From positions 1-14,331 of the IMG/VR virus record IMGVR_UViG_2778261418_000001: a stretch of DNA of 14,331 bases. One strand, 5' to 3'. Below the pieces are notes generated by a model. That model searched no databases and was not told the origin of the DNA. It saw nothing but the letters and a program-made list of their open reading frames with translations. The stretch is from a virus (taxonomy: Duplodnaviria > Heunggongvirae > Uroviricota > Caudoviricetes). This document shows positions 1 through 13,834 of this stretch, one piece after another; positions within the stretch are counted from its first letter, which is position 1, and the number at the start of each line of letters is the position of its first letter. The translations under genes and the position numbers were made by a program.

Positions 1-57
1 TTGACTCTTCTTTCACCCCTCAAGCCCCAAGCTCTTTCACCAATGGAGTCTGTCCTC

Positions 58-291
58 TTAAACTGAGCCACACCCCACAACAAACTCGTAGTAATCGCTC
101 CAGTCGATTTTGTTTTTGCCAGCTGCTTTCCAGGCGGTGAATGCACCGTTGTCCAGCGCGAACGACTGACAGTATTCAGCCGCGAGATTGATCTGGCCTG
201 AATGCGCAAAACTGATAAACGCATGTCGCCCTTTCCATGCTCTCATTGCGCACGTATCAGGAGTAATAGGCCCACCGTGGTAGTGAATCAT
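58..291 (-). CDS. hypothetical phage early protein (77 aa)
   Basis: Complete ORF; its ATG overlaps the stop of the upstream 246-aa gene (ATGA at 290-293). No family recognised. Confidence 0.45.
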   Translation of the reverse strand: MIHYHGGPITPDTCAMRAWKGRHAFISFAHSGQINLAAEYCQSFALDNGAFTAWKAAGKNKIDWSDYYEFVVGCGSV

Positions 292-292
292 C

Positions 293-1033
293 TCACTCTC
301 CTTTGATGCGAATGTCAGCGTCAGACATCATATGCAGATACTCAACTGCATCCTGAACCCATTGACCGCCAATCCCGTAATAGCGATGCGTAATGATGTC
401 GATAGTTACTAACGGGTCTTGTTCGATTAACTTCCGCAGAAACTCTTCCAGGTCACCAGTGCAGTGCTTGATGACAGGAGTTTTCCCAGGATGGCGAACA
501 ACAAGAAACTGATTTCCGACTTCACGGACTTCGTTGCTTTCCAGTTCTGCAATGCGCTTCTCTGCGGATTCCAACGCCGCAACCAATTCGTCTACAGTTC
601 CGGCAGCTTGCAGTGCGTAATCGGTAATAGCCATCTCATGATCAATTTCAGTACCGTTCTCATTCGTTGAGGTGATAGCAAAATAATCAGAGTCGATTTC
701 GTTATCAGCTAAGTGGCGTAGCGTATCGGCAACAAGCCGGCCGTTTTCGATTAGCAGCTTCCCTACCGTAAGCGCAATATCCTCGTTCTCCTGGTCACGG
801 CTTTTGATGTATTGCTGGTTTCTTTCCCGTTCATCCAGTAGTGCCAAAGCAATCTTTGGATTAAAGGCAGCAATAAATTCAGCGTTGTTTTTCAGAACGT
901 GTTGCGCAATGGCCTGACTACTTAGTCGGACCTCATAACCACGTGCGCCACGGTGTGGTTTATATGAGTCCCAGTCTCCCCACGTTGCTTTCTCTGCCGC
1001 CTCACGCAGTGCCTGATAGTCAATCTTGCTCAT
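293..1033 (-). CDS. hypothetical early-left protein, possibly ead/Ea22-like (246 aa)
   Basis: Long ORF, ATGA-coupled to the 174-aa gene upstream. Acidic, with a coiled-coil-looking central segment. Ea22-like is a guess from position and composition. Confidence 0.5.
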   Translation of the reverse strand: MSKIDYQALREAAEKATWGDWDSYKPHRGARGYEVRLSSQAIAQHVLKNNAEFIAAFNPKIALALLDERERNQQYIKSRDQENEDIALTVGKLLIENGRLVADTLRHLADNEIDSDYFAITSTNENGTEIDHEMAITDYALQAAGTVDELVAALESAEKRIAELESNEVREVGNQFLVVRHPGKTPVIKHCTGDLEEFLRKLIEQDPLVTIDIITHRYYGIGGQWVQDAVEYLHMMSDADIRIKGE

Positions 1034-1554
1034 TGGATGACTCCTTTACGAAGCTGTTCTGCGATATCTTCGAGAACGCCATCAGAGAATGAACGGTCAA
1101 AATCGCCTTCCGGCGCATTGGCCATAAACTCAGTAGAGGTAAGAATCATCCGGGCAATATCCGCAGCGTTCTTCGCAGTATCATCAATAAAACCAGCTTT
1201 CCAGGCTGCCAACATTCTGTTCGCCACAAAATAAGCGCCTTCCTTGCGTGCTTCAGTCTTCCCTTCAGCCAGGAAAGCATCGGTGGCAGGGGTCCCTTCA
1301 ACCTTCAGCCCTATAGGGGCCAGGTAATCCTTCAGACCAGCATTCTCAGCAGTCAGCGCCGCGCATTTAGCCTCAAGGTTATCAATCGTGATTCCAGCAG
1401 AACGACACTCCCGCAACGCCGTTTCCAGTTTTGATTCAAGTTCACCGAACTTACGCACCAGATATTCAGCGTTTGTTTCGTTAACCTTTAAATCTCGTGG
1501 GATGCATTTACCTTTCAGAAATCCATCCATCTCAATTAGTGTCATTTGTTTCAT
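1030..1554 (-). CDS. hypothetical early-left protein (174 aa)
   Basis: ORF with ATGA overlap to the preceding small gene (1551-1554). Ala/Glu-rich, coiled-coil-like centre. Function unknown. Confidence 0.5.
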
Positions 1555-1715
1555 TTCTTCCCACTCCGCAACATCGCATTCAGATATTTGTTGTCATTAA
1601 CAGAACCGAAACTCTTTCTCTTAAGTAATTCCTCTCTCGATGGCATTGGCTTTACGCGTTGGCGAATAATCATTTCTGCCGGAAGAATGCCGGGATTGTA
1701 TGCAAGTCCTCTCAT
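1551..1715 (-). CDS. small hypothetical protein (54 aa; start refined from the 104-aa track ORF)
   Basis: The track ORF 1551..1865 overlaps the 97-aa gene in another frame. An internal ATG at 1715 has a GAGGA Shine-Dalgarno 7 nt upstream. Basic C-terminus. Confidence 0.35.
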
Positions 1716-1725
1716 TGTAAATTCC

Positions 1726-2019
1726 TCAGTCATTACTGATAGCGCCATAGCGTGAGCGGTAATTACGCAGGCGCGGGTCAATTTCAGGGAAGTGGGTATA
1801 TGTGGCTTTACGGAATGGTCGGATTGATGTCTGGTAAATTCGCTCGCGTTCTTCTTTCTCTGCAAGCCATATACAGTGGCGAAATTCCTTTTCCTCTTTC
1901 GTTTCCTGCGGTAGCGACATTATCCGATCGTAGTTTTTCCTGAATTTATCCAGCACCTCCGATACGGAATTGCCGGAACAGCGGCGCGGGTCATCCGCAC
2001 CATACAGAGGCGCTGGCAT
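1726..2019 (-). CDS. hypothetical protein (97 aa); possibly Abc2-like anti-RecBCD, by position and size only
   Basis: ATG at 2019 with AAGGA 7-8 nt upstream. Sits just downstream of the erf/ssb module, where P22 carries abc2. Assignment not confirmed by sequence. Confidence 0.5.
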
Positions 2020-2042
2020 AATGGAATCCTTATTTTTCTAAA

Positions 2043-2426
2043 TCAGAATGGGATGGAATCGTCGTATACAGGAGTGTTCTGCTGGTTACTACTTTGCTGA
2101 TGTTGGCTGTTTCCTGAGGTTGCAAATCCAATCTTTGCATTCAGTAATTCAAGAGTGATTGATTGACCATTTTGCCCATGATAAACATCAACCCTGATGT
2201 TTTCTCCGGTAATTTCTACAATGCCACCTTCAACAAGAACACTACGGTAGTAATCCGCTTGCGCTCCCGGCTTGGCAAATACAACGGCGCTGTAGTTTGT
2301 CCATTCTTTCTTTTTTGTCTGGCGATCGTAATACTGAACGCCAGCACGGATGTTGAATCCGATATTTTCCCCGGCCTGAAACTCTCTTGCGGGCTTGTTT
2401 AGTCTTACAGTAATCGAATGTGCCAT
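2043..2426 (-). CDS. ssb: phage single-stranded DNA-binding protein (127 aa from internal ATG)
   Basis: C-terminus ends DDSIPF, the classic SSB acidic tail, after a Gln/Ser-rich linker. ATG at 2426 overlaps the erf stop (TAATG). The 30-residue N-terminal extension in the track ORF lies inside erf. Confidence 0.7.
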   Translation of the reverse strand: MAHSITVRLNKPAREFQAGENIGFNIRAGVQYYDRQTKKKEWTNYSAVVFAKPGAQADYYRSVLVEGGIVEITGENIRVDVYHGQNGQSITLELLNAKIGFATSGNSQHQQSSNQQNTPVYDDSIPF

Positions 2427-3031
2427 TAAGCAGCCGCTCCTTCTAATTCGTCTCGTCTGATGTTGTAAACGTCCTGCGCTTTGTGCTGCTCCGGTGTTCC
2501 TTCGAGCATCTTCCACGCTTTGGCGAACGCCTGTTTAAGATCTTCCACGGTGTTTTTTTGCATTGCTGCGTCAGTGAATGCTTTTAGAACCTGTTCAGGT
2601 GTAGGTGATGGTTTTGATTGCTTTGCTGCTGCGTTCTGCTGATGTTTATGTTCGTCGGTATCTGCATCTTTCGCATCATCAATGCCGAACAAACCATTGA
2701 GGCAATACTTGCGTGCATAAGAGCTTGTAGCTCCCGTAACTTGTGCAGAATCCATTCCTTTCTTGCTTTCTTCCTCTCGTGCAAGAGCAGTTGCCGTATG
2801 ACTGTTTTCGCCATCGGTAATAGTTGCCGTGGCTTTCACGTAATACCGATCACCAATCAACACAACTTCATCGCTGATTGATAAAAACAGGCCATTCAGT
2901 AACGGCTTAACGCCTTCAAGAATGTCTTCGCAGCTTCTGTATTTATATTTTCCGAATGAGTTGTACTGATTCTTTGGCGCGTTCAGATTCTCCTGAATGG
3001 CTGCCAGTCTTGCGTAAAATTCTTTGCTCAT
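2426..3031 (-). CDS. erf: single-strand annealing recombinase, ERF-family candidate
   Basis: From MSKEFYARL the protein matches P22 Erf as recalled from memory, in both sequence and ~200-aa size. Position matches P22 (downstream of cIII/kil). The upstream TTG start has no RBS. Confidence 0.65.
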   Translation of the reverse strand: MSKEFYARLAAIQENLNAPKNQYNSFGKYKYRSCEDILEGVKPLLNGLFLSISDEVVLIGDRYYVKATATITDGENSHTATALAREEESKKGMDSAQVTGATSSYARKYCLNGLFGIDDAKDADTDEHKHQQNAAAKQSKPSPTPEQVLKAFTDAAMQKNTVEDLKQAFAKAWKMLEGTPEQHKAQDVYNIRRDELEGAAA

Positions 3032-3132
3032 ATGATTGTTCTCAGAATGGACATGGCCCAAGGAAATAACGCTGATTTAATACTTCGACTCGGGACAAAT
3101 TAAGGCATACCCGCATTCCTTCGCGGTCACCA

Positions 3133-3291
3133 TTATGGCGATACCAGAGAGCTTTCTGCGTGTACATGCGTCTCTGTAACTTGCTCTCCTTCACTGTGGT
3201 TGCAAGTGACATGAATATCTCCTTCGTTACCGATTAATTCTTTCATCTGACGAATGAATTCTTCGTCTGACCAGTTATCTGTAAAACTCAT
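3133..3291 (-). CDS. small protein (52 aa) in the kil position
   Basis: ATG at 3291 overlaps the cIII stop (ATGA). Lambda and P22 have kil immediately downstream of cIII. No sequence confirmation. Confidence 0.35.
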   Translation of the reverse strand: MSFTDNWSDEEFIRQMKELIGNEGDIHVTCNHSEGEQVTETHVHAESSLVSP

Positions 3292-3458
3292 GGACGGCCT
3301 TGTTGTTTCAAAATATCCCAAAGCTTTTCGAGCAAGCTTTTCATTCTTGGTTGTTTAAAGTCTGCTCCGGTTAAAATGTTTTTTCGTGAATGCTGTACCG
3401 ATAAAATCGGGTTGAAAGGGCGAACCGATGCCGCCCCTGCAATAGCGAACTGCTGCAT
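3288..3458 (-). CDS. cIII: CIII-like protein (56 aa), inhibitor of FtsH-mediated CII degradation
   Basis: Not in the ORF track. ATG at 3458 with AGAAGGAG Shine-Dalgarno. Translation MQQFAIAGAASVRPFNPILSVQHSRKNILTGADFKQPRMKSLLEKLWDILKQQGRP resembles lambda CIII (MQYAIAGW... / ...WKRLIDILNQPG). Confidence 0.65.
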   Translation of the reverse strand: MQQFAIAGAASVRPFNPILSVQHSRKNILTGADFKQPRMKSLLEKLWDILKQQGRP

Positions 3459-3534
3459 AGGATGCTCCTTCTGTTTGATTGCATAACGAAAAACGCCTCG
3501 AGTGAAGCGTTATTGGTATGCGGTAACGCCGCGC

Positions 3535-3903
3535 TCAGGCGGCTTTGATAGTCATATCATCTGAATCAAATATTCCTGATGTATCGATATCGGTAATTCT
3601 TATTCCTTCGCTACCATCCATTGTAGGCCATCCTTCCTGACCATTTCCATCATTCCAGTCGAACTCACACACAACACCATATGCATTTAAGTCGCTTGAA
3701 ATTGCTATAAGCAGAGCATGTTGCGCCAGCATGATTAATACAGCATTTAATACAGAGCCGTGTTTATTGAGTCGGTATTCAGAGTCTGACCAGAAATTAT
3801 TAATCTGGTGAAGTTTTTCCTCTGTCATTACGTCATGGTCGATTTCAATTTCTATTGATGCTTTCCAGTCGTAATCAATGATGTATTTTTTGATGTTTGA
3901 CAT
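3535..3903 (-). CDS. hypothetical protein (122 aa), acidic
   Basis: ATG at 3903 with GAGGA RBS. Lies in the sieB/ral/ea10-equivalent variable slot. No family recognised. Confidence 0.55.
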   Translation of the reverse strand: MSNIKKYIIDYDWKASIEIEIDHDVMTEEKLHQINNFWSDSEYRLNKHGSVLNAVLIMLAQHALLIAISSDLNAYGVVCEFDWNDGNGQEGWPTMDGSEGIRITDIDTSGIFDSDDMTIKAA

Positions 3904-3921
3904 CTATTCATATCCTCACAG

Positions 3922-3948
3922 AAAAAAATCGCCCTCACATCGGAGGGC
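3922..3948 (-). terminator. intrinsic terminator-like hairpin just upstream of the 122-aa gene
   Basis: On the minus strand: GCCCTC-cgatgt-GAGGGC followed by GATTTTTTT, about 19 nt before the RBS. Confidence 0.5.
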
Positions 3949-4052
3949 AAAGAAGATTTCCAATAATCAGAACAAGTCGGCTCCTGTTTAGTTACGAGCG
4001 ACATTGCTCCGTGTATTCACTCGTTGGAATGAATACACAGTGCTTATTTGTA

Positions 4053-4523
4053 CTAATAAAATACCCAATTTTCTGTTTCTTGGTTGTGTCCAAAGTTATA
4101 TTCAATATCTGGTGTTGATGTATCAATATTTTTCATCCCATCAACAAGAGTTGATACAACAGCCAAATCTTGTTTTATTCTCATTAAATGGTATTTCTTC
4201 CGGCGCAATAAACTTTCAATAGCAAGTTTCTTCGTTGGGAATGCAAAAGATCTTTCTGCATTTTTTGCTACTTTCTTAATTGCATATCTATTTCTCCTTT
4301 GTTTCCATTCCTGTAACCACTGATTTGGTGCTGGTTTAAAATCAACAATCCAATGCGCAGGAACCAACCATGCATAATGCTCTGTCTGATGAAAAGCTAT
4401 ATATTGAAGTGCGAATATTTTTATCCCATCTTCTTCAACTGTCGCCTGGAATCTCCAGAAAACAGGCATTCCATCATGTTCAGTTTCTGATTCAGGAAAA
4501 GGTACGCTCCATGATTTTGTCAT
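4053..4523 (-). CDS. hypothetical protein (156 aa)
   Basis: ATG at 4523 with GAGGTG Shine-Dalgarno. The RBS overlaps the stop of the N-like remnant, as expected for the native gene downstream of N. No family recognised. Confidence 0.55.
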   Translation of the reverse strand: MTKSWSVPFPESETEHDGMPVFWRFQATVEEDGIKIFALQYIAFHQTEHYAWLVPAHWIVDFKPAPNQWLQEWKQRRNRYAIKKVAKNAERSFAFPTKKLAIESLLRRKKYHLMRIKQDLAVVSTLVDGMKNIDTSTPDIEYNFGHNQETENWVFY

Positions 4524-4531
4524 ATCTCACC

Positions 4532-4624
4532 TCAAATAAGTGGTTTGCTGCCTAATTTCATTTTCTGGCGACCAACACAAGTCACACCCATTTCACTGCG
4601 TGGCTTGCTGTAGTAAATACGGTT
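4532..4624 (-). pseudogene. N: 3' remnant of an N-type antiterminator gene (C-terminal ~30 codons only)
   Basis: Minus-strand frame translates to NRIYYSKPRSEMGVTCVGRQKMKLGSKPLI-stop, matching the conserved C-terminus of lambda N (YSKPGERGITCSGRQKIKGKSIPLI). The frame is closed by TAA at 4673-4675, has no start codon, and differs from the upstream 147-aa ORF frame. Confidence 0.6.
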
Positions 4625-4630
4625 ATTTAT

Positions 4631-4657
4631 GTAATAAAAAACCCGCCTTAGCGGGTT
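4631..4657 (-). terminator. intrinsic terminator after the 147-aa gene
   Basis: Minus strand: AACCCGC-taag-GCGGGTT followed by TTTTTATT, directly after the 147-aa stop codon. Confidence 0.6.
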
Positions 4658-4658
4658 A

Positions 4659-5102
4659 TTATTTCTTTGGATTTAGCTTTTCCATGTTCTCTGCGATCGT
4701 ACCTATTCTTGACCTTATTGTTGGAATATCAATTCCTCTCTGTATGTCTACATTTAAAGACATAAGCTCTCTGCTCCATCCTGCGATCGCATCGTGAAAT
4801 TGTCTTGCCCTGCTTGCTTGTCTACGTCTGCTGCTTTCAAGCTCTGTAAGCATTTGCTTTGCTTCGATCTGAGACTTGCCTTGCCCAACTCCCAATGCAT
4901 CGATTGCACATTGCCTCATCTCTGCTTTTATCAAAGGGTGAAGATTTTCAGCGCCAATAAAAATTACCTCGTCTATGCTTTTAAAAAGCAGAAGGCAATC
5001 AGTAACAACTTTGGTTCTTTTATCATCACACCTTACCTCTACCGAAGGTACGCCGCCATATTGCTTAACTCTCATTGCCGTGTAAACTGTAGCACTCTTC
5101 AA
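4659..5102 (-). CDS. hypothetical protein (147 aa) occupying the N position; TTG start
   Basis: AAGGAGG Shine-Dalgarno 5 nt before TTG at 5102. First gene after pL. Internal Arg-rich stretch SSRRRQASRARQ. No resemblance to lambda, 21 or P22 N. Confidence 0.55.
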   Translation of the reverse strand: MKSATVYTAMRVKQYGGVPSVEVRCDDKRTKVVTDCLLLFKSIDEVIFIGAENLHPLIKAEMRQCAIDALGVGQGKSQIEAKQMLTELESSRRRQASRARQFHDAIAGWSRELMSLNVDIQRGIDIPTIRSRIGTIAENMEKLNPKK

Positions 5103-5130
5103 ATCAGCCTCCTTTTTCTTTTTCTATATC

Positions 5131-5170
5131 AAAAAGCTGCTTTGCTTTTTGTGACTAAAAGCAAAAAAGC
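5131..5170 (-). promoter_or_regulatory. large hairpin plus U-run in the pL leader, preceded by a boxA-like motif
   Basis: Minus-strand RNA: GCUUUUUUGCUUUU-agucac-AAAAGCAAAGCAGC (14-bp stem, one mismatch) then UUUUU, ending ~17 nt before the RBS. TGCTCATTA lies ~10 nt 5' of the hairpin (boxA consensus CGCTCTTTA). Confidence 0.45.
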
Positions 5171-5259
5171 CTTCTCGCTAATGAGCAGCATTGCCGTTCA
5201 TCCTGAACCCGCCGCGCTCCCGACGCATGGTTTAATGTCGCGCCGTTCGACATGGCTTA

Positions 5260-5301
5260 ACTATACCCAAAGCTATTATTGCTGTAAATAGCTATAGTTA
5301 T
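5260..5301 (-). promoter_or_regulatory. OL/pL: leftward early promoter with overlapping repressor operators
   Basis: Minus strand -35 TTTACA (plus 5283-5288), 17-bp spacer, -10 TATAGT (plus 5260-5265). Operator-like sites ATACC-caaa-GCTAT (5263-5276) and ATAGC-tata-GTTAT (5288-5301), same architecture as OR. Confidence 0.6.
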
Positions 5302-5390
5302 AAAATAACTCCTTTGGTTATTTAGTCATTGATATCTAATGTAATTTATTTTTCTTGTATGTGAGATTTGGTGTTTTTTGGGCAATAAAA

Positions 5391-5409
5391 AACCCGCAAA
5401 AAGCGGGTT
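5391..5409 (-). terminator. intrinsic terminator downstream of cI
   Basis: Stem AACCCGC/GCGGGTT with 5-nt loop. On the minus strand it is followed by TTTTATT. 19 bp past the cI stop. Confidence 0.6.
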
Positions 5410-5427
5410 TGTTGTGGTGTGATGAGG

Positions 5428-6159
5428 TTAGTAGTCAACTACAGACCACCAGAAGATTCTTCCGATGATCTCGATATCGCTTAGATTCTTTTCTTCTTGT
5501 GGGTATTCCAGTGAGTTAAAGCTTCTAATGCTTACCTTGTCAGGCCCTGATCGAAAGAGAATCTTAATGCGTTTCCAACCGTTCTCGTTAATGGCGTAAA
5601 TCTTTCCGTCAACTATTTTCTTATCGTTGGTGTTAACAGCAACTGTTGTTCCATCAGGAATGTTTGGCTCCATGCTGTTGCCACGAGCCGGAAAACAAAC
5701 AACCCCGCTTCCATCACTGTTCGCGCCAACTCTGCGAAGGGTTGATTTGGAGAAGCGCAACATAAAGCCGTTGTGATCTTCATCAATCACCCGACCATCC
5801 CCGCATGCAAACTCAATATCTTTAAGGTAAGGAACTTCAACTTCATCACCTCTTAAAGGCGTTCCTCCATCCCATGGGTCCAAATATCCCCACGTGCTTT
5901 CATGAGGAATAGAAGATTTTGGATTATAAGGTTCAACTCCCTCATCACGCATTGGCCCAGTCCCATCGGAAAGCCATTCCGTACGAACTCCAAGCACTTT
6001 TGATATTTCAAAAAGTTTGCGCGTATTGCGTGTTTTTCCAGACGTAAGTTTCCAGACGCTTGGCTGAGACATGCCAACAGCATTGCCAAGAGAAGCCTGA
6101 GTAAACCCAGCCTGATCCATCGCGTATGTAAGCCTTTGAGAAAAAGTATCTAGTTTCAT
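5428..6159 (-). CDS. cI: CI-type prophage repressor (HTH N-domain plus LexA-like S24 autopeptidase C-domain)
   Basis: N-terminal XRE-type HTH (QASLGNAVGMSQPSVWKL). C-terminal S24 fold with the Ser motif GNSMEP and Lys in KRIK. Divergent from cro, flanked by operators; mRNA appears leaderless from pRM. Confidence 0.85.
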   Translation of the reverse strand: MKLDTFSQRLTYAMDQAGFTQASLGNAVGMSQPSVWKLTSGKTRNTRKLFEISKVLGVRTEWLSDGTGPMRDEGVEPYNPKSSIPHESTWGYLDPWDGGTPLRGDEVEVPYLKDIEFACGDGRVIDEDHNGFMLRFSKSTLRRVGANSDGSGVVCFPARGNSMEPNIPDGTTVAVNTNDKKIVDGKIYAINENGWKRIKILFRSGPDKVSIRSFNSLEYPQEEKNLSDIEIIGRIFWWSVVDY

Positions 6160-6165
6160 TCGTAC

Positions 6166-6236
6166 AACCTATAGCTACAGCTATTATTAGTCAAATACCT
6201 AAAGCTATTTACTTTCTGAATAGCTTTGGCTATTAT
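6166..6236. promoter_or_regulatory. OR region: three operators overlapping divergent pRM and pR
   Basis: Sites ATAGC-taca-GCTAT (6171-6184), ATACC-taaa-GCTAT (6195-6208), AATAGC-tttg-GCTATT (6218-6233). pR: -35 TTTACT (6208-6213), 17 bp, -10 TATTAT (6231-6236). pRM on minus: -35 TTGACT (6189-6194), 17 bp, -10 TAGGTT (6166-6171), with the cI ATG ~7 nt downstream. Confidence 0.65.
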
Positions 6237-6267
6237 TCTGATTGTGAATTCAGCAGGAGTTATTTTT

Positions 6268-6498
6268 ATGGTCAACGAGGCTATTAAAGCGGCTATTGAC
6301 TCAGTAGGAAGTCAGCAAAAGTTAGCTGATGCCTGCGGTGTTAAGCAGCCGTCTGTATGGGCTTGGTTGCATGGGAAGAAAAGGGTATCCGCTGAAAATG
6401 CCAAGCGCATTGAAATGGCTACCAATGGAAGCGTCCCTGCATACCTGATTCGCCCTGATTTATCCGCTTTGTTCCCCAATCCGAACAAAGCAGCTTAA
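6268..6498 (+). CDS. cro: Cro-like repressor (76 aa from ATG 6268)
   Basis: First gene rightward from pR. AGGAG RBS before ATG 6268. HTH QQKLADACGVKQPSVWAWLHGKK. The TTG at 6226 in the track ORF lies inside the operator. Confidence 0.75.
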   Translation: MVNEAIKAAIDSVGSQQKLADACGVKQPSVWAWLHGKKRVSAENAKRIEMATNGSVPAYLIRPDLSALFPNPNKAA

Positions 6499-6617
6499 TA
6501 AAGCAAATTTTTATACCGAACGGCCCGGTATACGGTCGGGTGCCCGGCGTGGTCATGGATGACTGTCAATGGTGCACAATAAAAAACCAAATTATTTACC
6601 TATGGAAATAGTAAGAA

Positions 6618-6914
6618 ATGGAACAAACAAGTTACAGCAAACTATCACAGCGCGACGTTGATCGCGCAGAAACAGATTTACTTATCAACCTGTCAACGCT
6701 TACTCAGCGCGGTCTGGCAAAGATGATTGGCTGTCATGAATCGAAGATAAGCAGAACGGACTGGAGATTTATTGCTTCAGTCTTGTGTGCTTTCGGAATG
6801 GCATCAGACATCAGTCCGATTAGTAGGGCTTTTAAGTATGCGCTTGATGGAATCACAAAGAAAAAATCCCCGGCCGCCACCGAGGATTTTAAGCAAATTG
6901 ATATGCAATTCTGA
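6618..6914 (+). CDS. cII: CII-like transcriptional activator
   Basis: 98 aa. C-terminal KKKSPAATEDFKQIDMQF aligns with lambda CII (KKRPAATERSEQIQMEF), with the HTH centrally. Position after cro. Confidence 0.75.
   Translation: MEQTSYSKLSQRDVDRAETDLLINLSTLTQRGLAKMIGCHESKISRTDWRFIASVLCAFGMASDISPISRAFKYALDGITKKKSPAATEDFKQIDMQF
6627..6640 (-). promoter_or_regulatory. putative pRE CII-binding repeat (TTGC-N6-TTGT) inside the 5' end of cII
   Basis: Minus strand reads TTGCtgtaacTTGT. Lambda pRE has TTGC-N6-TTGC flanking its -35 in the same place and orientation. Confidence 0.35.
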
Positions 6915-6946
6915 GGGAATTACTGGATCAATCCACAGGAGTAATT

Positions 6947-7591
6947 ATGACATACGAAAATGACAAATTCCAGGTTCTGAAGAGCATGAAGGTTCCAGAT
7001 GATTTTAAATCAAATGGCTTTGTTTATGTGCTTTCGAATGAGTGCATGCCAGGAATTTATAAGATTGGGATGACTAAGCATTCACCAGAAGTTAGGGCTA
7101 AAGAAATTTCAGCCTCTACTGGCGTTCCTAAGCCATTTAAGGTGATAGCAGCCTTTCATTCAAATAATCCCGCATCAGATGAAAAACTCATTCATAAAGC
7201 CTTTGCAAAAGAGAGGCTTAGTGATAATCGAGAGTTTTTCAAGCTTGAAGATAATGATCTTTCTGAATCTCTAAATGAAATAAGGGCGCTGGTTGGCCCT
7301 GAAAGAAATGGCGAGACGGCAGAATACGCAATTTACGACTCATTCATTTCTTTTCGCCATGAAAATGAGCTTGATCTTAATGAGGAGCTTATAGAGCAAG
7401 GTCTGGGTAGTGTAGTTGGTCATCTTCCTGCGGTGAAAAATTTCCTTATTCGCGCCGGAATTGATTACGCGAAGCAACTGATAAGCAAATATAACTCATC
7501 GATAGTTATTAATACAGATGGCAGTGTGGTGATGGTTAAGTCTCTTGAAGCCCAATGCTTTGATGCGGAGGTTGGAAATGAGCCTTGCTGA
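6947..7591 (+). CDS. T5orf172 (GIY-YIG-like) domain protein; moron between cII and O
   Basis: GGAG RBS. N-terminal GFVYVLSNECMPGIYKIGMTKHSPEVRAKEI ... REFFKL matches the T5orf172/MUG113 GIY-YIG-related pattern. Lambda has cII directly followed by O. Confidence 0.65.
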   Translation: MTYENDKFQVLKSMKVPDDFKSNGFVYVLSNECMPGIYKIGMTKHSPEVRAKEISASTGVPKPFKVIAAFHSNNPASDEKLIHKAFAKERLSDNREFFKLEDNDLSESLNEIRALVGPERNGETAEYAIYDSFISFRHENELDLNEELIEQGLGSVVGHLPAVKNFLIRAGIDYAKQLISKYNSSIVINTDGSVVMVKSLEAQCFDAEVGNEPC

Positions 7592-8420
7592 AGTATTTTA
7601 CCTGCCGAAGAGTGAACCTGTTGAACAGGAGCGAAGAGTGGCTGATATCGATGATGGTTACACCAGATTCGCTAACGAGCTGCTGGAAGCTATCGCAAGT
7701 GCCGATTTAACCGCTCGCCAGTTGAAAGTTATGCTGGCCTACGTCCGGAAAACATATGGATTCAATAAGAAAACAGATCGAATAGCCGATGAGCAAATTG
7801 CTCAGTTAACAGGACTGTCAAGGCAGAATGTTAACAAGGCTAAAAAAGAACTGATTTCAATGAATTGCCTGTTTATGGATGGAAATCAAATCGGTGTAAA
7901 CAGTGAGGTATCTGCGTGGCAATTCAGCAAGTGTCTCCAAGTTAGCAACTTTGTCTCGAAGTTAGAGACAAAAAATGTCTCCAAATTAGAGACACTCAAT
8001 GTCTCGAAGTTAGAGACACACAAAAGACATTCTTTAAAGACAAAAGAAAATATTAATAAACCCCCTATATCCCCCAAAAAAGTTTCTCAGAAGTTCGACC
8101 CGCTAGAAACAGAGTTGCCTGATTGGTTATCAGCAGAAACATGGTTGTCGTGGGTTACCTATCGCAAGGAGATAGGTAAGTCGATCAAGTCTAAGCAAAG
8201 TGTCACTCAGGCTATCAACGTTCTAAGCAGAAGTCTGGAGAAGGGATATACACCTGAAGAAATTATAAACCAGAGCATCGCCAGTGGTTGGCAGGGGATT
8301 TTTGAGCCCAAGACTCCAAAGGGGAAATCTCAACCGAGGCCGCAGCATCGAGCTATGCAGGAAAACTTTGCCACCAAAGATTACGGACAAACTGAAATGC
8401 CTTCATGGGCGCAGGAGTGA
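7578..8420 (+). CDS. O: replication initiator O (lambda O family)
   Basis: N-terminal RRVADIDDGYTRFANELLEA...LKVMLAYVRKTYGFNK aligns with lambda O (RNVADLDDGYARLSNMLLEA...FKVLLAILRKTYGWNK). Iterons lie inside the ORF. Start set at ATG 7578 (GGAGG RBS) rather than 7545. Confidence 0.85.
   Translation: MSLAEVFYLPKSEPVEQERRVADIDDGYTRFANELLEAIASADLTARQLKVMLAYVRKTYGFNKKTDRIADEQIAQLTGLSRQNVNKAKKELISMNCLFMDGNQIGVNSEVSAWQFSKCLQVSNFVSKLETKNVSKLETLNVSKLETHKRHSLKTKENINKPPISPKKVSQKFDPLETELPDWLSAETWLSWVTYRKEIGKSIKSKQSVTQAINVLSRSLEKGYTPEEIINQSIASGWQGIFEPKTPKGKSQPRPQHRAMQENFATKDYGQTEMPSWAQE
7932..8075. repeat. lambdoid replication origin: four iterons plus AT-rich region inside O
   Basis: Iterons at 7932, 7952, 7976 and 8000, each ~19 bp (TGTCTCgaagttaGAGACA, with internal dyad TGTCTC/GAGACA); the first is degenerate. 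Followed by AT-rich 8020-8075. Confidence 0.8.
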
Positions 8421-8422
8421 AC

Positions 8423-9268
8423 ATGACGCTGGATGAAAAGATCTCCCAACTGGAGAAAAAACTTGCAGAATTGAGTTCTCCGCCAATTGCTATCGAGCAT
8501 ACAGCTGTAGAAATTGGCACTGGCATCTGTGAAAAACATGGTGAGTTTGAGCAGCGTAACCGTTACTCGACTGGGCCAATTAAGTTTGCCTCAAGACCTA
8601 GCGAATGCCCGGAATGCATGAGAGATGAGCTTATTCGGCTACAGGCAGAGAAGATTAAAATCGACGAAGAATCACGTAAGCGCAATGTCGAGTTTCTGTT
8701 GAATAATCTTGATATTCCTGAACGATTCAAGGGTTGCACACTACAGAACTACGAGCCAGTCAACGACGATGCAAAGAGAGTGCTCAGGGTGTGTCAGGCA
8801 TACGCCAGCAAATGGCCTGAGAGGTTACAGAAAGGCGGTGGGCTGGTTATGTGTGGAAAGCCTGGTACTGGAAAGAATCATCTTGCACTGGCTATCGCCC
8901 GGCACGCAATTACGGAACATCAAAGCTCAGCTATTTTCACAACGGCGCTGAAAATTGCCAGAGAATATAAATCAACATGGTCGAAAAACTCCACCCGCAC
9001 AGAGGATGAAGTGATCCGACAGTTCACTAAACCTGACCTGCTAATTATCGATGAGGTTGGTGTGCAGTTTGGAAGCGAGGCGGAAAAGATGATCATGTTC
9101 GAAATCATCAACACCCGCTACGAGCGCATGAAGCCAACAATCCTGATTAGCAACCAGAGCAAAGATGAACTGTCTGCATTCATTGGTGAGCGTGTTATTG
9201 ACAGGATGAATGATGGCGGCGGGTGCACTCTTGCGTTTACATGGGATAGTTACAGGAGCAGATCGTGA
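8423..9268 (+). CDS. DnaC-like helicase loader (IstB-type AAA+ ATPase) with N-terminal zinc-ribbon-like Cys motif
   Basis: Walker A GKPGTGKNHLA and Walker B LLIIDEVG. CxxH...CPEC motif near the N-terminus. AGGAG RBS before ATG 8423. Directly downstream of O. Confidence 0.85.
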   Translation: MTLDEKISQLEKKLAELSSPPIAIEHTAVEIGTGICEKHGEFEQRNRYSTGPIKFASRPSECPECMRDELIRLQAEKIKIDEESRKRNVEFLLNNLDIPERFKGCTLQNYEPVNDDAKRVLRVCQAYASKWPERLQKGGGLVMCGKPGTGKNHLALAIARHAITEHQSSAIFTTALKIAREYKSTWSKNSTRTEDEVIRQFTKPDLLIIDEVGVQFGSEAEKMIMFEIINTRYERMKPTILISNQSKDELSAFIGERVIDRMNDGGGCTLAFTWDSYRSRS

Positions 9269-9555
9269 CTGGAAAAGAAATCATCCTGGAATATCTGAAA
9301 ACTCATGAACAATTCTCCCCACATGAATTAGCACTGATCACCGGAATACCAAATAACAGAATCGCTCAAGCAGCAAGGCATATGGTGAAACAAGGACATT
9401 TGAGTGTTGTTGAGCGTAAGTGGAAGACGGTTATTTATGCAAAACGCAAAGTGAAGAAGGAGCCAATTAAAAGAAATCCAGATGGTACGGGGTGGGGATG
9501 TGCAAATCCAATGACGGCGTTTATTAATAGGGCGCTTATGGAGGTAAGGCAATGA
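9265..9555 (+). CDS. ren: Ren-like protein (96 aa)
   Basis: GTG start overlapping the loader stop (GTGA), GGAG RBS. MTGKEIILEYLKTHEQFSPHELALITG... aligns with lambda Ren (MTGKEAIIHYLGTHNSFCAPDVAALTG...), same length and position. Confidence 0.7.
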   Translation: MTGKEIILEYLKTHEQFSPHELALITGIPNNRIAQAARHMVKQGHLSVVERKWKTVIYAKRKVKKEPIKRNPDGTGWGCANPMTAFINRALMEVRQ

Positions 9556-9580
9556 CCATCTACATCACTGAGCTAATAAC

Positions 9581-9613
9581 AGGCCTGCTGGTAATCGCAG
9601 GCCTTTTTATTTG
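9581..9613 (+). terminator. tR2-like intrinsic terminator between ren and ninB
   Basis: AGGCCTGC-tggtaatc-GCAGGCCT followed by TTTTATTTG. Confidence 0.6.
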
Positions 9614-9628
9614 GGGGAGAGGGAAGTC

Positions 9629-10069
9629 ATGAAAAAACTAACCTTTGAAATTCGATCCCCAGCACATCAGCAAAACGCTATTCACGCGGTACAGCAAATT
9701 CTTCCAGACCCAACCAAACCAATCGTAGTGACCATCCAGGAACGCAACCGCAGCTTAGACCAAAATCGGAAGCTTTGGGCTTGCTTAGGTGACGTCTCTC
9801 GTCAGGTTGAATGGCATGGTCGCTGGCTGGATGCAGAAAGCTGGAAGTGTGTGTTTACCGCAGCATTAAAGCAGCAGGACGTTGTTCCTAACCTTGCCGG
9901 GAATGGCTTTGTGGTAATAGGCCAGTCAACCAGCAGGATGCGTGTAAGCGAATTTGCGGAGCTATTAGAGCTTATACAGGCATTCGGTACAGAGCGTGGC
10001 GTTAAGTGGTCAGACGAAGCGCGACTGGCTCTCGAATGGAAAGCGCGATGGGGAGATCGGGCTGCATGA
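9629..10069 (+). CDS. ninB: NinB recombination protein
   Basis: From MKKLTFEIRSPAHQQNAIHAVQQILPDPTKP... the protein is essentially identical to lambda NinB as recalled from memory. Confidence 0.9.
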   Translation: MKKLTFEIRSPAHQQNAIHAVQQILPDPTKPIVVTIQERNRSLDQNRKLWACLGDVSRQVEWHGRWLDAESWKCVFTAALKQQDVVPNLAGNGFVVIGQSTSRMRVSEFAELLELIQAFGTERGVKWSDEARLALEWKARWGDRAA

Positions 10070-10590
10070 CTATCAAATCAAATACGCCAGCGTCAGATAG
10101 GTATCGGCTTATTGAGGATTATCTGTATTTAGACGGAGATACAGTCAGGTACAAAAAGGACTCGCTAAAACACCCCAACCACAGCCACCGGGCCGGAGAT
10201 GAAATTAAAACATCGATAAATGGATCTGGGTATAGACAGGTGTGTTTTGCAGGCATTCAGATGTTTGTTCACGTAGTTGTTTTTGCGCTGCACAACAAAA
10301 GAATGCCATTGAAAAATATTGACCATATTAACGGAAACAGGCTGGACAATTCCCCAAAAAATCTTAGGGAGGCAAGCCGGATAGCAAACAGCCGAAATCA
10401 GAAAACTAAGTGCAATAGCCGTTCTGGAATAAAAAATGTTTTATGGAACAAGCAAAAAAATAAATGGGCCGTTCAAGTGCGCACAGATTTTGGCCGGTTG
10501 CATTTTGGGTTCTATGAAGATCTTGAGCTTGCTGGTTTGGTTGCCAGTGAGGCTATCAACAAATATCACGGACAATATGCGAGGGTTTAA
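10066..10590 (+). CDS. HNH endonuclease with AP2-like DNA-binding domain (free-standing homing-endonuclease type)
   Basis: ATG 10066 overlaps the ninB stop (ATGA). HNH motif IDHINGNRLDNSPKNLR. C-terminal AP2-like WNKQKNKWAVQV...GFYEDLELAG. Inserted between ninB and the next nin gene. Confidence 0.8.
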   Translation: MTIKSNTPASDRYRLIEDYLYLDGDTVRYKKDSLKHPNHSHRAGDEIKTSINGSGYRQVCFAGIQMFVHVVVFALHNKRMPLKNIDHINGNRLDNSPKNLREASRIANSRNQKTKCNSRSGIKNVLWNKQKNKWAVQVRTDFGRLHFGFYEDLELAGLVASEAINKYHGQYARV

Positions 10591-11120
10591 TGATTAAGCA
10601 TAAATCAGAAACACCAAAAGAAGTTAGAGACTGCTGGCAAACGCCGCTTTGGCTTTTTGATGCACTGGATATTGAGTTTGGATTCTGGCTGGATTCGGCA
10701 GCGAGCGACAAAAATGCTCTGTGCGCTCACTGGCTAACTGAGGCCGACGACGCACTCAATTCTGAGTGGATAAGCCACGGTGCAATCTGGAATAACCCAC
10801 CGTACAGCAATATCAGGCCGTGGGTGGAAAAAGCCGCTGAGCAGTGCATACAACAGCGACAGACGGTAGTGATGCTTGTGCCAGAGGATATGTCTGTCGG
10901 ATGGTTCAGCAAGGCTCTGGAGAGTGTTGACGAAGTTCGCATTATCACTGATGGACGGATTAATTTTATCGAACCATCGACAGGGCTGGAGAAGAAGGGA
11001 AACAGTAAAGGCTCCATGCTGCTGATTTGGCGACCGTTCATCAGTCCTCGACGGATGTTTACTACCGTATCCAAAGCGGCATTGATGGCGATCGGGCAGG
11101 GCGTCAGGAGGGCGGCATGA
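10590..11120 (+). CDS. dam: phage Dam-type DNA N6-adenine methyltransferase
   Basis: Catalytic NPPY motif (IWNNPPYSN), size and nin-region position typical of phage orphan N6-adenine methyltransferases. TAATG overlap with the HNH gene. Confidence 0.8.
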
Positions 11121-11299
11121 GACGACAGCGACGAAGTATCACCGACATAATCTGCGAAAACTGCAAATACCTTCCAACGAAGCGCTCCAGAAATAAACGC
11201 AAGCAAATCCCAAAAGAATCTGACGTAAAAACCTTCAATTACACGGCTCACCTGTGGGATATCCGGTGGCTTAGAGAACGTGCGAGGAAAACAAGGTGA
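11117..11299 (+). CDS. ninE: NinE
   Basis: [60 protein letters not shown] is near-identical to lambda NinE as recalled. ATGA overlap with dam. Confidence 0.85.
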
Positions 11300-11466
11300 T
11301 TGACCCAAATCGAAGTTACGAACAAGAAAGCGTCGAGCGGGCTTTAACGTGCGCTAACTGCGGTCAGAAGCTGCATTTTCTGGAAGTTCACGTGTGCTCC
11401 GATTGCTGCGCAGAACTGATGAGCGATCCGAATAGCTCAATGTACGAGGAAGAAGACGATGAATGA
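11296..11466 (+). CDS. ninF: NinF (56 aa, GTG start)
   Basis: Not in the ORF track. GTG at 11296 overlaps the ninE stop. Translation [56 protein letters not shown] matches lambda NinF. Confidence 0.8.
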
Positions 11467-12181
11467 GTTAATAAATGGCAATGCCATCAAAATGACAAGC
11501 ATTGAAATCGCTGAGTTGGTGGGTAAGCGTCATGACAATGTGAAACGTACCATCGAAACGCTGGCTAAAAATGGTGTTATCCGGCTTCCTCAAATTGAGG
11601 TTTCCGAAAGAATCAATAACTTAGGGTTCAATGTTCAGTACGAGCATTACGTCTTCGAAGGCGAACAAGGTAAGCGAGATAGTATTGTTGTTGTTGCCCA
11701 GTTGTCGCCGGAATTCACCGCTCGTCTTGTTGACCGTTGGCGAGAGCTTGAAGAAGCTGCGGTTAATATCCCAAAAACGCTACCAGAAGCGTTGCGCCTT
11801 GCTGCTGATCTTGCTGAGCAGAAAATGCAACTGGAAAACCAGCTTGCAATTGCCGCACCTAAAGTTGAGTTTGCCGATCGCGTTGGCGAGGCCAGCGGAA
11901 TTTTGATTGGAAACTTTGCAAAGGTTGTCGGTATTGGTCCAAACAAACTGTTTGCGTGGATGCGCGATCACAAAATCCTTATTGCTTCAGGTTCCCGGCG
12001 CAATGTGCCAATGCAGGAATATATGGATCGCGGCTATTTCACAGTGAAAGAAACAGCGGTCAACACAAATCACGGAATACAGATATCGTTCACCACAAAA
12101 ATCACCGGGCGTGGTCAACAGTGGCTGACCAGAAAGCTGCTCGATAACGGAATGCTGAAAGTAACAGGGGAGGCTGCTTAA
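11459..12181 (+). CDS. antirepressor-like protein (Rha-type N-domain plus KilA-C/Ant C-domain)
   Basis: N-terminus (MTSIEIAELVGKRHDNVKRTIETL) resembles the Rha regulatory domain. The C-terminal half (FAKVVGIGPNKLFAWMRDHKIL...) resembles the KilA-C antirepressor domain. Inserted between ninF and ybcO. Confidence 0.7.
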   Translation: MNELINGNAIKMTSIEIAELVGKRHDNVKRTIETLAKNGVIRLPQIEVSERINNLGFNVQYEHYVFEGEQGKRDSIVVVAQLSPEFTARLVDRWRELEEAAVNIPKTLPEALRLAADLAEQKMQLENQLAIAAPKVEFADRVGEASGILIGNFAKVVGIGPNKLFAWMRDHKILIASGSRRNVPMQEYMDRGYFTVKETAVNTNHGIQISFTTKITGRGQQWLTRKLLDNGMLKVTGEAA

Positions 12182-12471
12182 TGGCTAACCTACGCAAAGA
12201 AGCACGCGGCAGAGAATGCCAGGTACGTATTTACGGAATATGCAATGGTAATCCTGAAACTACAGTTCTGGCACATTACCGGATGGCTGGAATTTGCGGA
12301 ACGGGAATGAAGCCTGACGACCTGATCGGCGCATGGGCTTGTAGCGCGTGTCACGATGAAATCGACCGACGCACCCATAACCTCGACAACAAAGACGCCA
12401 GACTTTACCACCTGGAAGGCGTGATCAGGACGCAGGCGATACTGCTGAAGGAGGGGAAGATTAAGCCATGA
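12181..12471 (+). CDS. ybcO: YbcO-like DUF1364 protein (Cys-rich, putative nuclease)
   Basis: 96 aa with a conserved Cys pattern (CQVRIYGICNG...CSACHDEIDRR). Same size and position (before rusA) as DLP12 YbcO. Confidence 0.65.
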   Translation: MANLRKEARGRECQVRIYGICNGNPETTVLAHYRMAGICGTGMKPDDLIGAWACSACHDEIDRRTHNLDNKDARLYHLEGVIRTQAILLKEGKIKP

Positions 12472-12830
12472 ACGAATATCAGTTTGTGCTTCCATACCCG
12501 CCGTCGGTGAACACCTACTGGCGAAGACGGGGAAGCCAATACTACATCAGCGATAAAGGCCAGAAATACCGAAAAGACGTTCAGCAAATCATCCGCCAAC
12601 TTAAGTTAGACATTTTCACCAAATCACGACTCCGCATCAAAGTCATCGCAGACGTTCCAGACTCCCGCCGCCGCGACCTCGACAACATCCTGAAAGGTTT
12701 ACTCGACTCCCTTATCCACGCCGGATTCGCGGAAGACGACGAGCAATTCGATGACATTCGCGTAATTCGTGGTGTGAAAGTACCAGGTGGACGGCTTGGA
12801 GTAAAAATCACCGAACTGGAGAACGTATGA
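12468..12830 (+). CDS. rusA: RusA Holliday-junction resolvase
   Basis: 120 aa. Motifs LPYPPSVNTYW and RRRDLDN and C-terminal GGRLGVKITEL align with E. coli RusA (LPWPPSNNRYY, RRRDLDN, GGRLELTITEM). Confidence 0.85.
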   Translation: MNEYQFVLPYPPSVNTYWRRRGSQYYISDKGQKYRKDVQQIIRQLKLDIFTKSRLRIKVIADVPDSRRRDLDNILKGLLDSLIHAGFAEDDEQFDDIRVIRGVKVPGGRLGVKITELENV

Positions 12831-13015
12831 ACGCCACAATTCAAACGATACCAGAGCTTCTTATCCAGACACGAGGTAATCAGACCGAAGTGGCGAGGAT
12901 GCTTTCCTGCGCAAGAGGAACAGTGCTCAAGTACAACCGAGACAGAAAAGGCGAGCGTCACGTAATAGTTAACGGCGTCCTGATGGTCACGCCAGGCAAA
13001 AAGGGAAGACGATGA
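12827..13015 (+). CDS. ninH: NinH-like small DNA-binding protein
   Basis: IPELLIQTRGNQTEVARMLSCARGTVLKYNRDRKGERHVIVNGVLMV aligns with lambda NinH (IPDMLVEAYGNQTEVARRLKCSRGTVRKYVDDKDGKMHAIVNDVLMV). Confidence 0.75.
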   Translation: MNATIQTIPELLIQTRGNQTEVARMLSCARGTVLKYNRDRKGERHVIVNGVLMVTPGKKGRR

Positions 13016-13530
13016 GCATAAGAGAACTAAACCTCACCAAAGAACAGCACGAGTGGCTGAATGGCTGGCTTGAACTGTGGGGCGCATGGGTTTATTCAGG
13101 TCGTCTGGAAAAGCGTATGAGCAGCGTAATAGCGAAGTTCATGGAGAGCGTAGAGCCGGGAAGAGTTATGACAAGGCCAATGTGCAATGATGATGATGGA
13201 ATGTTGATTTCTCAGGTCGTCGATTCCGTCATGTACATTGACAAAAAAGCCTTTGGCATCCTCCTCAGCTACTACGCTCATGGTTCATCTAAGCGAGCAA
13301 TTGCATCCTACTATCACGCGACTGCAAAGCCACGCAAGATGTGTGGACGTGGTGGCGAGGGATGGAGAAAACCTTCACTGGCAACCTGTAGAAACGAAAT
13401 TGACGACATCCTGAAAGCGTCATTATTTGTTTTATACCAGCCGATGCAAAATGCTTTCAAAATGCGTAAACGTGTTGAGAAAGTTAAGCATATTGCTGTT
13501 AAAAGCCTTGACATGCAATTATCCATTTAG
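13012..13530 (+). CDS. Q: late-gene antiterminator Q (QuuD/phage 21-82 type, not lambda-Q type)
   Basis: Pattern LELWGAW ... RPMCNDDDGML ... LLSYYAHG parallels DLP12 QuuD (ERWGAW ... RPQCCDDDAMI ... LLVDYYVVG) as recalled. Last gene before the putative late promoter. Confidence 0.8.
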   Translation: MSIRELNLTKEQHEWLNGWLELWGAWVYSGRLEKRMSSVIAKFMESVEPGRVMTRPMCNDDDGMLISQVVDSVMYIDKKAFGILLSYYAHGSSKRAIASYYHATAKPRKMCGRGGEGWRKPSLATCRNEIDDILKASLFVLYQPMQNAFKMRKRVEKVKHIAVKSLDMQLSI

Positions 13531-13537
13531 CCATAAT
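13508..13537 (+). promoter_or_regulatory. putative late promoter pR' overlapping the 3' end of Q
   Basis: TTGACA (13508-13513), 18-bp spacer, CATAAT (13532-13537). The hairpin with U-run ~10 nt downstream would give a short terminated transcript, as in lambdoid pR'/tR'. Confidence 0.5.
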
Positions 13538-13548
13538 TAGAAGGTAAG

Positions 13549-13588
13549 CTACCGTTAGTGACTCTTAAGTTGCAACGGTGGCTTTTTT
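13549..13588 (+). terminator. tR'-like intrinsic terminator
   Basis: CTACCGTT ... AACGGTGG (8 bp including one G-U) around a 17-nt loop, then C and TTTTTT. Confidence 0.5.
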
Positions 13589-13592
13589 ATTT

Positions 13593-13667: not shown

Positions 13668-13672
13668 AATAT

Positions 13673-13748: not shown

Positions 13749-13834
13749 TAACTGAGCCGTAGCCACTGGCTATCCTGAACTCATCAGTGATAGTTATGCT
13801 GCGGCCTTCTACACATGACCTTCGTGAAAGCGGG

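Follow-up and report, generated by a model that had tools for sequence, protein, structure and literature searches.

The window considered here is a stretch of 14,331 nucleotides (nt), positions 1 to 14,331 of the virus record IMGVR_UViG_2778261418_000001 (IMG/VR), and it represents the early region of an Escherichia coli prophage of the lambdoid type. It raises the question of how early genes could be transcribed in a prophage that retains only a stump of the antitermination gene N. A preliminary description had proposed that the 5' part of N and nutL were replaced by a cassette carrying a gene for a protein of 147 amino acids (aa), and that either the prophage is N-defective or something in the cassette supplies antitermination. 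The genes and signals of the window were mapped by open reading frame (ORF) calls, Pfam, a promoter scan and a terminator scan. We conclude, with a probability of about 0.85, that this lambdoid prophage is of the HK022 type, the immediate-early part of its pL operon being dependent on the antiterminator RNA put and independent of N.

The promoter pL and the OL operators are located at 5260-5301 on the minus strand (−35 TTTACA at 5288-5283, 17-nt spacer, −10 TATAGT at 5265-5260). This pL is the top match of the region in the promoter scan (10/12) and sits within operator repeats common to OR (6169-6233); its start, placed at the A near 5253, is derived from alignment with the annotated pL of HK022 and O276. 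The leader of pL carries, at 5181-5253 on the same strand, an HK022-type cis-acting antiterminator RNA, putL, consisting of a 5' duplex (UGUCG/CGACA), a lower stem I and a stem II. The stretch 5259-5122 is 96.4% identical over 138 nt to the pL leader of HK022, HK75 and the lambda/HK022 hybrid O276, and the records of HK75 and O276 annotate the matching stretch as 'putL, antiterminator RNA'. The alignment with HK022 shows complete identity from A8 to U74 and beyond, and the critical residues A9, G35, A64, U68 and U28 (−10-like element) are all within this identical stretch. The only differences of putL from HK022 lie in the A3-G7/C15-U19 duplex, AGACG...CGUCU in HK022 and UGUCG...CGACA in the window, which represent two A-U to U-A swaps with the pairing kept; at its 5' end the leader lacks one base relative to HK022. 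The duplex, its numbering and the functional residues follow the cryo-electron microscopy (cryo-EM) study of HK022 put (PMC9378689).

A second RNA of the same type, putR, is located at 6514-6577 on the plus strand, between cro and cII, showing 97% identity over 72 nt to the annotated putR of O276 and HK022; it had been overlooked in the preliminary description. While putL begins at the putative +1/+2 of pL, putR begins about 271 nt after the putative start of pR, in agreement with the published distance of ~270 nt downstream of pR (PMC9378689). put occupies both early leaders, pL and pR, with 96-97% identity and at the same positions relative to the promoters as in the early region of HK022 (pL-putL-nun and pR-cro-putR), HK75 and O276. 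In HK022, which is without N, the put RNA alone binds the zinc-binding domain of the RNA polymerase β' subunit and suppresses terminators, whether intrinsic or Rho-dependent, over at least 10 kb (PMC9378689).

Folding of the single sequences of putL and putR gave results no better than shuffles (z = +0.3 to +0.7). Such a result is to be expected of an RNA that is pseudoknotted and bound to protein, and covariation was therefore used instead. For seven putL and seven putR variants, taken from the window and related loci, 22 pairs based on the cryo-EM structure, including the pseudoknotted duplex, were counted: 99.3% of the cells were paired and seven pairs were changed on both sides, while none of 500 shuffles was as good and slid registers gave 27-51% pairing. 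The two-sided changes include U37-A71 and U40-A67 in one putL variant and several differences between putL and putR. Immediately downstream from putL, an A/U-rich hairpin with a U-run (5131-5175, minus strand; fold z = −2.8) precedes the 147-aa gene, and it is 100% identical in HK022 and O276 up to 5122, where the homology with HK022 stops. Each putL compared (the window and loci L030, L032, L036, L044, L039 and L041) is followed by a stable hairpin within about 10 nt, of which the structure is kept while the sequence is lineage-specific (A/U-rich with a U-run in the HK022 type, AATTAC..GTAATT in others); it may act as a terminator, as a processing site or in the control of translation.

N is represented only by an orphan 3' end at 4532-4624 (minus strand), 30 codons and a stop without a start codon. 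The sequence from 4624 to 4535 translates to NRIYYSKPRSEMGVTCVGRQKMKLGSKPLI, followed by a TGA stop at 4534..4532, and its final codons hold the ribosome-binding site (RBS) of the following 156-aa gene. The remnant and the 3' end of N in vB_EcoP-611R6, an intact gene for 99 aa, align base for base (...EEVERKQ and then, past the junction, NRIYYRKPRSEMGVTCVGRQKMKLGSKPLI and the stop), the homology beginning exactly at 4624 with AAC CGT ATT TAC (N70); upstream of this position the T-tract of a hairpin terminator stands in place of the N sequence. The junction at this T-tract is a recombination breakpoint, as had been suspected. A tblastn search of the whole window with four N proteins matched only N residues 69-100 (E 5e-17), and the same search, with Nun added, detected neither an N head nor Nun in the 14.3 kb. 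Upstream, the N frame is open for only 16 codons, back to a TAA within the end of the 147-aa ORF; as read from the sequence, it contains no ATG, GTG or TTG ahead of the internal Met, and it is out of frame with the 147-aa ORF (5102 to 4624 is 478 nt), all as previously described. Translation of the remnant from the internal ATG, yielding a 19-aa peptide (MGVTCVGRQKMKLGSKPLI), was considered and rejected, there being no RBS and the tail varying in allele and length among loci.

A chance match of the N peptide, raised at the outset as a possible objection, is ruled out, since the remnant part is matched in 258 phage records and in 1,448 of 5,426 complete E. coli genomes. Relatives with intact N at this locus were found among Stx and P22-like phages, many of which are 99-100% identical to the window over the block 4400-4624 (156-aa gene plus the 3' end of annotated N). 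For the same junction in E. coli 317, the annotation pipeline PGAP lists the 93-nt remnant, there a lambda-like N allele, as 'antitermination protein N, incomplete, missing N-terminus'. If the truncation were a sequencing or assembly error, an intact N should appear on resequencing. The probability of such an error is practically negligible: 15 independently assembled complete E. coli genomes match all of 4400-5450 at 98.7-99.0% identity and several IMG/VR prophages share the junction, which is therefore no assembly artefact, and about 500 nt of unrelated, conserved coding sequence occupies the place of the N head.

The absence of nutL, as proposed, was also confirmed. A search allowing at most one mismatch detected no boxA in the leader of pL or pR, while boxB of the cognate N type is undefined and was not directly searchable; beyond 4624 there is no similarity to the leaders of N-type phages. 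As had been supposed, the sequence that separates pL from the remnant is foreign to such phages. The prophage thus differs from phages with the lambda-type N/nut system (lambda, 21, 933W/H-19B and P22 gene 24) in lacking the N head with its arginine-rich N-terminus and boxA, its device being a cis-acting RNA. It shares with them the genomic slot and the operon logic of an early promoter, an antitermination device and terminators; the 30 codons are a true N C-terminus, and the 156-aa gene, ea10 and the terminator tL2a come from N-type phages.

Could the prophage then be a former N/nut user, in which an insertion removed the N head and nutL and the delayed-early genes can no longer be expressed? 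Thirty N codons without a start codon, and two intrinsic terminators between pL and the recombination genes, would be expected of such a phage. The near-perfect HK022 put at canonical sites in both early operons, however, is not expected in a decaying N-type phage, and the presence of putL and putR together with the absence of N and nut indicates that the prophage is N-independent, not N-defective. The same layout is found in HK022, an isolated phage, and in the deposited genomes of phiEt88, PDP110P2 and APC_JM3.2, which argues against a crippled prophage; phiEt88 and PDP110P2 additionally carry the 147-aa gene. Furthermore, the identity of 99-100% between the N tail and live N genes indicates a recent joint and not decay, and orphan N tails adjoin the cassette also in phages with intact N. 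An N-defective state, one of the two possibilities in the preliminary description, is therefore very improbable.

Compared with HK022 and O276, the window has the same hairpin after putL, no N, no nut and the same terminator core after the first gene. It differs from HK022 in the putL duplex and further as follows: the repressor and operators are of different specificity (a 243-aa XRE/S24 repressor), nun and the nun promoter are absent with the 147-aa gene directly following putL, and an orphan N tail follows the terminator, which is found in neither HK022 nor O276. Past 5122, HK022 goes on into the nun promoter and nun, while the window goes on into AAAGAAAAAGGAGGCTGAT-TTG, the 147-aa ORF and a terminator. 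In E. coli 317 an HK022-type pL, identical to that of O276, is joined to the 147-aa gene, and in Erwinia phage phiEt88 the order of putL, 147-aa homologue, terminator and orphan N tail is as in the window. Other put-like RNAs (HK639 'putL-like', Erwinia phiEt88, Salmonella UPF_BP1, S9-5 and Enterobacter CobraSix) share the put core sequence and fold; the put-like copies of other phages are 84-99% identical over the put core only (39-50% of a 160-nt query), with different flanking genes.

The 147-aa gene (phrog_13686) is located at 4659-5102 on the minus strand, with a TTG start and the RBS AGGAGG at 5113-5108, and is the sole gene before the first pL terminator. This terminator (4634-4657, minus strand), an intrinsic one, consists of a stem at 4657-4640 followed by TTTTTTATT including the T-run (fold z = −4.7), and directly adjoins the N remnant. 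A weak Rfam match to STnc370 at 4616-4667 (32 bits against a gathering score of 54) corresponds to its hairpin. The cassette proper thus covers about 4625-5121 with the RBS, the gene and the terminator, and is smaller than first supposed. The idea that something in the cassette supplies antitermination comes close if the cassette is taken to include the pL leader with putL; the device is not the 147-aa gene. The promoter scan detected no consensus promoter between putL and the TTG start, where only a weak extended −10-like sequence, TGATATAGA at 5132-5124, was noticed by eye. In the genomes compared the cassette directly adjoins putL (in CP029692, putL at 3014358-3014498 and the cassette at 3014499-3014995).

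The distribution of the gene was examined by script in 33 loci, 32 from IMG/VR and one from an Erwinia genome, the sole addition from a scan of genome contigs. In 33/33 loci it is the last gene before the first pL terminator. putL is located upstream of the gene in 16 loci, including those of E. coli and of phiEt88, at a distance of 80-122 nt in 15 of them; in L030 the distance is 428 nt and includes a nun homologue. In 14 of these 16 loci putR was detected as well, the exceptions being L036 and L041. In the other 17 loci an intact N bearing the arginine-rich motif lies upstream, ending 16-100 nt before the RBS of the gene; 16 of these N genes have a tail of the 933W/H-19B type (...CLPDVAIYxAGYR....VTAR and the stop) and one was read by eye as lambda-like. 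In Salmonella phage MG40, an 'N-like transcription anti-termination protein' is annotated immediately ahead of the 147-aa gene. All loci without N have putL, which is conserved at 98.6% where the 147-aa gene is only 64% identical at the nucleotide level. The cassette is rare in E. coli, occurring in 21 of 5,426 complete genomes and always together with putL, which was found in 38; two of these putL copies are on plasmid-sized records. Of the prophages with putL in these genomes, more than half have the 147-aa gene and lack nun.

The 147-aa ORF is evidently a real gene under purifying selection, with dN/dS of 0.04 against its 89%-identical relative in L027; elsewhere dS is saturated and dN is 0.15-0.35. 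The family forms 15 clusters at 90% identity, with 64-99% identity and conserved length, from Escherichia, Salmonella, Cronobacter and Enterobacter as well as phage and metagenome sequences. It is very narrow, belonging to enterobacterial phages: a profile search of 1.8 billion representatives gave four matches, all within the family. The protein is basic (pI 9.4) and matches phrog_13686 (E 4e-92), a family without assigned function. Its AlphaFold2 (AF2) model, which is confident (mean pLDDT 87), consists of a five-stranded N-terminal β domain and three helices, and the long helix carries the invariant ELESSRxRQASRARQFxDAIAGWS. No match was found in Pfam, NCBIfam, PADLOC, PDB or BFVD, and a profile search against PDB sequences gave only an RRM match at the chance level (E = 1.2).

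One might suppose that the 147-aa protein is a new antitermination protein replacing N, for instance through the invariant arginine-rich helix (SSRxRQASRARQF): it is basic, it is encoded at the first coding position after pL, and its metagenomic relative P0018 fuses a lambda-N-like arginine-rich head in frame to the helical part of the family. This relative, at 1195-1491 of contig L009, is a 98-aa chimera of the head (MNAQERRRERRKTQQDEWKKENPTLVGV, Pfam N36) and family residues ~49-107, preceded by a 56-codon orphan N 3' fragment and followed by the usual terminator of the family. The presence of intact N ahead of the gene in 17 loci, however, indicates that the gene is no replacement for N. 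Moreover, all N-less loci have putL, which is sufficient in HK022; a 106-aa relative is located in a P2-like prophage beside tail-fibre genes, away from any early operon; and the protein shows no similarity to N, Nun or Q. We therefore give this replacement only a very slight chance.

The position of the gene in E. coli 317, after an HK022-type pL and putL and exactly at the place of HK022 nun, suggested instead a Nun-like factor that excludes competing lambdoid phages, and the arginine-rich helix and the terminator core shared with that after nun are consistent with it. True Nun homologues, however, coexist with the gene in two loci, in the order putL, nun homologue, gene in L030 and N, gene, nun homologue in L029, so that the gene is no replacement for nun; the notion of a positional alternative of nun was dropped for this reason. 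These homologues (L030 2650-2979, L029 3476-3808) are 109-110 aa long with RRRIARW and a C-terminal KKKW(S), and in L029 N and Nun occur together in one phage. The HK022 nun promoter is absent, with only ~20 nt between the end of the HK022 homology and the start codon; with this promoter missing, and no more than 16-60 nt between N and the gene in N-type phages, expression in the lysogen is doubtful. BLASTP of the protein against Nun gave nothing (E = 30), and the Nun motif (...RDRRRIARW..., C-terminal ...KKW(S)) was not found in the window. A Nun-like role is accordingly unlikely.

A separate accessory gene, not needed for antitermination, is the best explanation of the 147-aa gene. Its very early expression, its independence from the antitermination device, the basic pI and the conserved arginine-rich helix weakly hint, as a guess of low confidence, at a nucleic-acid or polymerase binder made very early and acting on the host or on competing phages. 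It is also conceivable, though doubtful, that the family is a trans-acting factor of processive antitermination, binding the elongating polymerase or a nut/put-type RNA through the arginine-rich helix; this would explain both why the gene, whether N, Nun or putL precedes it, is fixed just ahead of the first pL terminator and why one relative is fused in frame to a lambda-N arginine-rich head. The cassette resembles phage morons and mosaic joints in being a compact gene with its own terminator, conserved across loci, bounded by sharp junctions, in spanning different immunity and antitermination backgrounds, even a P2-like prophage, and in having fragments of neighbour genes duplicated or orphaned alongside. 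No promoter of its own was found, in which it may differ from a moron, and the gene looks like a pL-driven early lytic gene and not one expressed in the prophage.

How, then, did the N stump arise? Orphan N fragments trail the cassette terminator in most loci, with varying lengths and alleles: 4 codons in L030, 12 in L012, 22-24 of the 933W type in L032-L044 and phiEt88, 30 in the window and other E. coli loci with three lambda/21-type alleles, and about 60 in L027 and L028. Loci L033-L038 and L040 carry both an orphan tail and an intact N upstream of the gene, which indicates that the orphan is a partial second copy rather than what is left of the only N. In a short subfamily (P0017 and P0018; L009 and L010) the orphan tail is located upstream of the gene, even in the P2-like prophage beside the tail-fibre genes. 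The earlier suggestion that the cassette replaced the 5' part of N is thus an unlikely history, since in 17 loci the gene stands behind intact N and is likewise flanked by orphan N fragments. We infer that the native place of the 147-aa gene is behind N, that recombination ends inside N and just past the terminator move the gene between phages, and that joints cutting N survive where the incoming arm supplies N or put. The N remnant would then be an inert scar of mosaic recombination and not a sign of lost function, and the pattern fits standard lambdoid mosaicism.

Several other junctions were observed around this position. The cassette terminator core recurs after the 147-aa gene in nearly all related loci and also after nun in HK022; the core AACCCGC-loop-GCGGGTT with a T-run is common to the terminators after cI (5390-5410), the 147-aa gene (4640-4657) and HK022 nun (L006/L007 3092-3112). 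As a speculation, the joints found directly after the cassette terminator could have formed through the short homology that such repeated hairpins provide. In E. coli PEC122 (L004 2934-3017) and APC_JM3.2 (L008 ~2285-2370), the repressor type, pL, putL, RBS and TTG AAG AGT G are as in the window, and the frame then runs on into the tail of an N of the 933W/H-19B type, giving a 27-aa peptide, MKSGTVCLPEVALFAAGHRTSKQVTAR, named 'transcriptional antitermination N peptide' by PGAP and matching phrog_271 positions 134-157. A 74-aa gene (phrog_5305) comes next, and further on only about six last codons of a lambda-type N tail are present. Between the cassette terminator and the orphan 933W-type N tail of L033-L040 (~3475-3545), the sequence AGAGTAGAGAAAGC...CCCCTTCTCTGCGTGACAGGCATGAGAGCAC is conserved; it contains an inverted repeat and may represent a regulatory RNA or a portion of the duplicated N.

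On the put-dependent reading, leftward transcription from pL (~5253), upon induction or infection, would first produce the putL RNA (5253-5181), which would fold on the nascent transcript and bind the zinc-binding domain of β', making the polymerase resistant to pausing and termination as shown for HK022. The 147-aa gene would be translated from its TTG start, and neither the cassette terminator (4657-4634) nor tL2a (3950-3922) would stop the modified polymerase, which would go on to transcribe ea10, kil, erf and the genes beyond, while putR (6514-6577) would act likewise on the pR operon. As to the origin, illegitimate or short-homology recombination past the cassette terminator may have joined the left arm to the interior of N of an N-type phage, the recombinant surviving because the left arm carries its own antitermination device.

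Several points weigh against this reading. The putL of the window has the one-base 5' deletion and two swapped pairs relative to HK022, though the pairing is retained; the activity of these put copies is predicted from their likeness to HK022, and read-through of the cassette terminator and tL2a is likewise a prediction. The window covers only 14 kb, so that defects in other parts of the prophage are possible. The recombination history has been reconstructed from the junctions seen today, and no homology, fold or defence-system match backs any specific role of the 147-aa protein.

The remaining features of the window are those of a lambdoid early region. The pL operon extends from ~5253 down to 58 on the minus strand, including the 156-aa gene (4053-4523; phrog_1636), which is located downstream of intact N in Stx and P22-like phages, the ea10-like DUF2528 gene (3535-3903) and Erf (2426-3061). 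The second pL terminator, detected by the terminator scan at 3922-3950 (minus strand), is equivalent to tL2a of O276 and lambda and is followed by the ea10-like gene identified by Pfam; the tL2a-ea10 block is 96.8% identical to that of O276. The cI-type repressor with helix-turn-helix and S24 peptidase domains (5428-6159, minus strand; Pfam) has its own terminator at 5390-5410 (terminator scan). On the plus strand, the promoter scan placed pR at 6208-6236, with a putative start near 6243, and it is followed by cro (6268-6498, ATG at 6268; Pfam P22_Cro/YdaS; annotated as a 231-nt gene in L005) and the early gene cII (6618-6914). Beyond cII lie O, a DnaC-like loader, NinB, Dam, RusA and the Q antiterminator (13012-13530).

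Some of these plus-strand intervals contain additional genes. A 214-aa protein with a T5orf172/MUG113 (GIY-YIG-like) domain is encoded at 6947-7591, inserted between cII and O and overlapping the start of the O ORF, and resembles an accessory gene. An ORF for an HNH_3 endonuclease (10006-10590), overlapping ninB at its 3' end, follows NinB (9611-10069) and precedes a Dam-family methyltransferase (10590-11120); it probably represents an insertion of the homing-endonuclease type. Two tRNA genes (13593-13664 and 13673-13745) are located directly after the Q gene and before a holin-like ORF (13993-14196); the order Q-tRNA-tRNA-holin is typical of the late regions of Stx phages, and no toxin gene lies between them in the window.

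The mode of antitermination described here is already known from HK022, and what is new is a put-dependent prophage with a different immunity region and cargo. The 147-aa proteins constitute a small immediate-early family that is strongly conserved and very strictly placed within the pL operon; if the doubtful trans-acting role were true, early operons would have in it a third kind of regulator in addition to N and Nun. The orphan N fragments, as a series, exemplify the joining of lambdoid mosaics, and the natural compensatory variants in the putL 5' duplex and stem II independently support the cryo-EM model. The apparent paradox of a lambdoid prophage with only an N stump is resolved by the solution of HK022, an RNA that reprograms RNA polymerase. 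Such elements escape routine annotation. The put regions matched no Rfam family at E <= 1, which is probably the reason why put is easily missed; among the 38 complete E. coli genomes with putL, none annotates it as such, 37 list no feature under the match and the 'regulator' listed in the remaining one is not putL. 'N-defective' calls for other prophages could thus be wrong.

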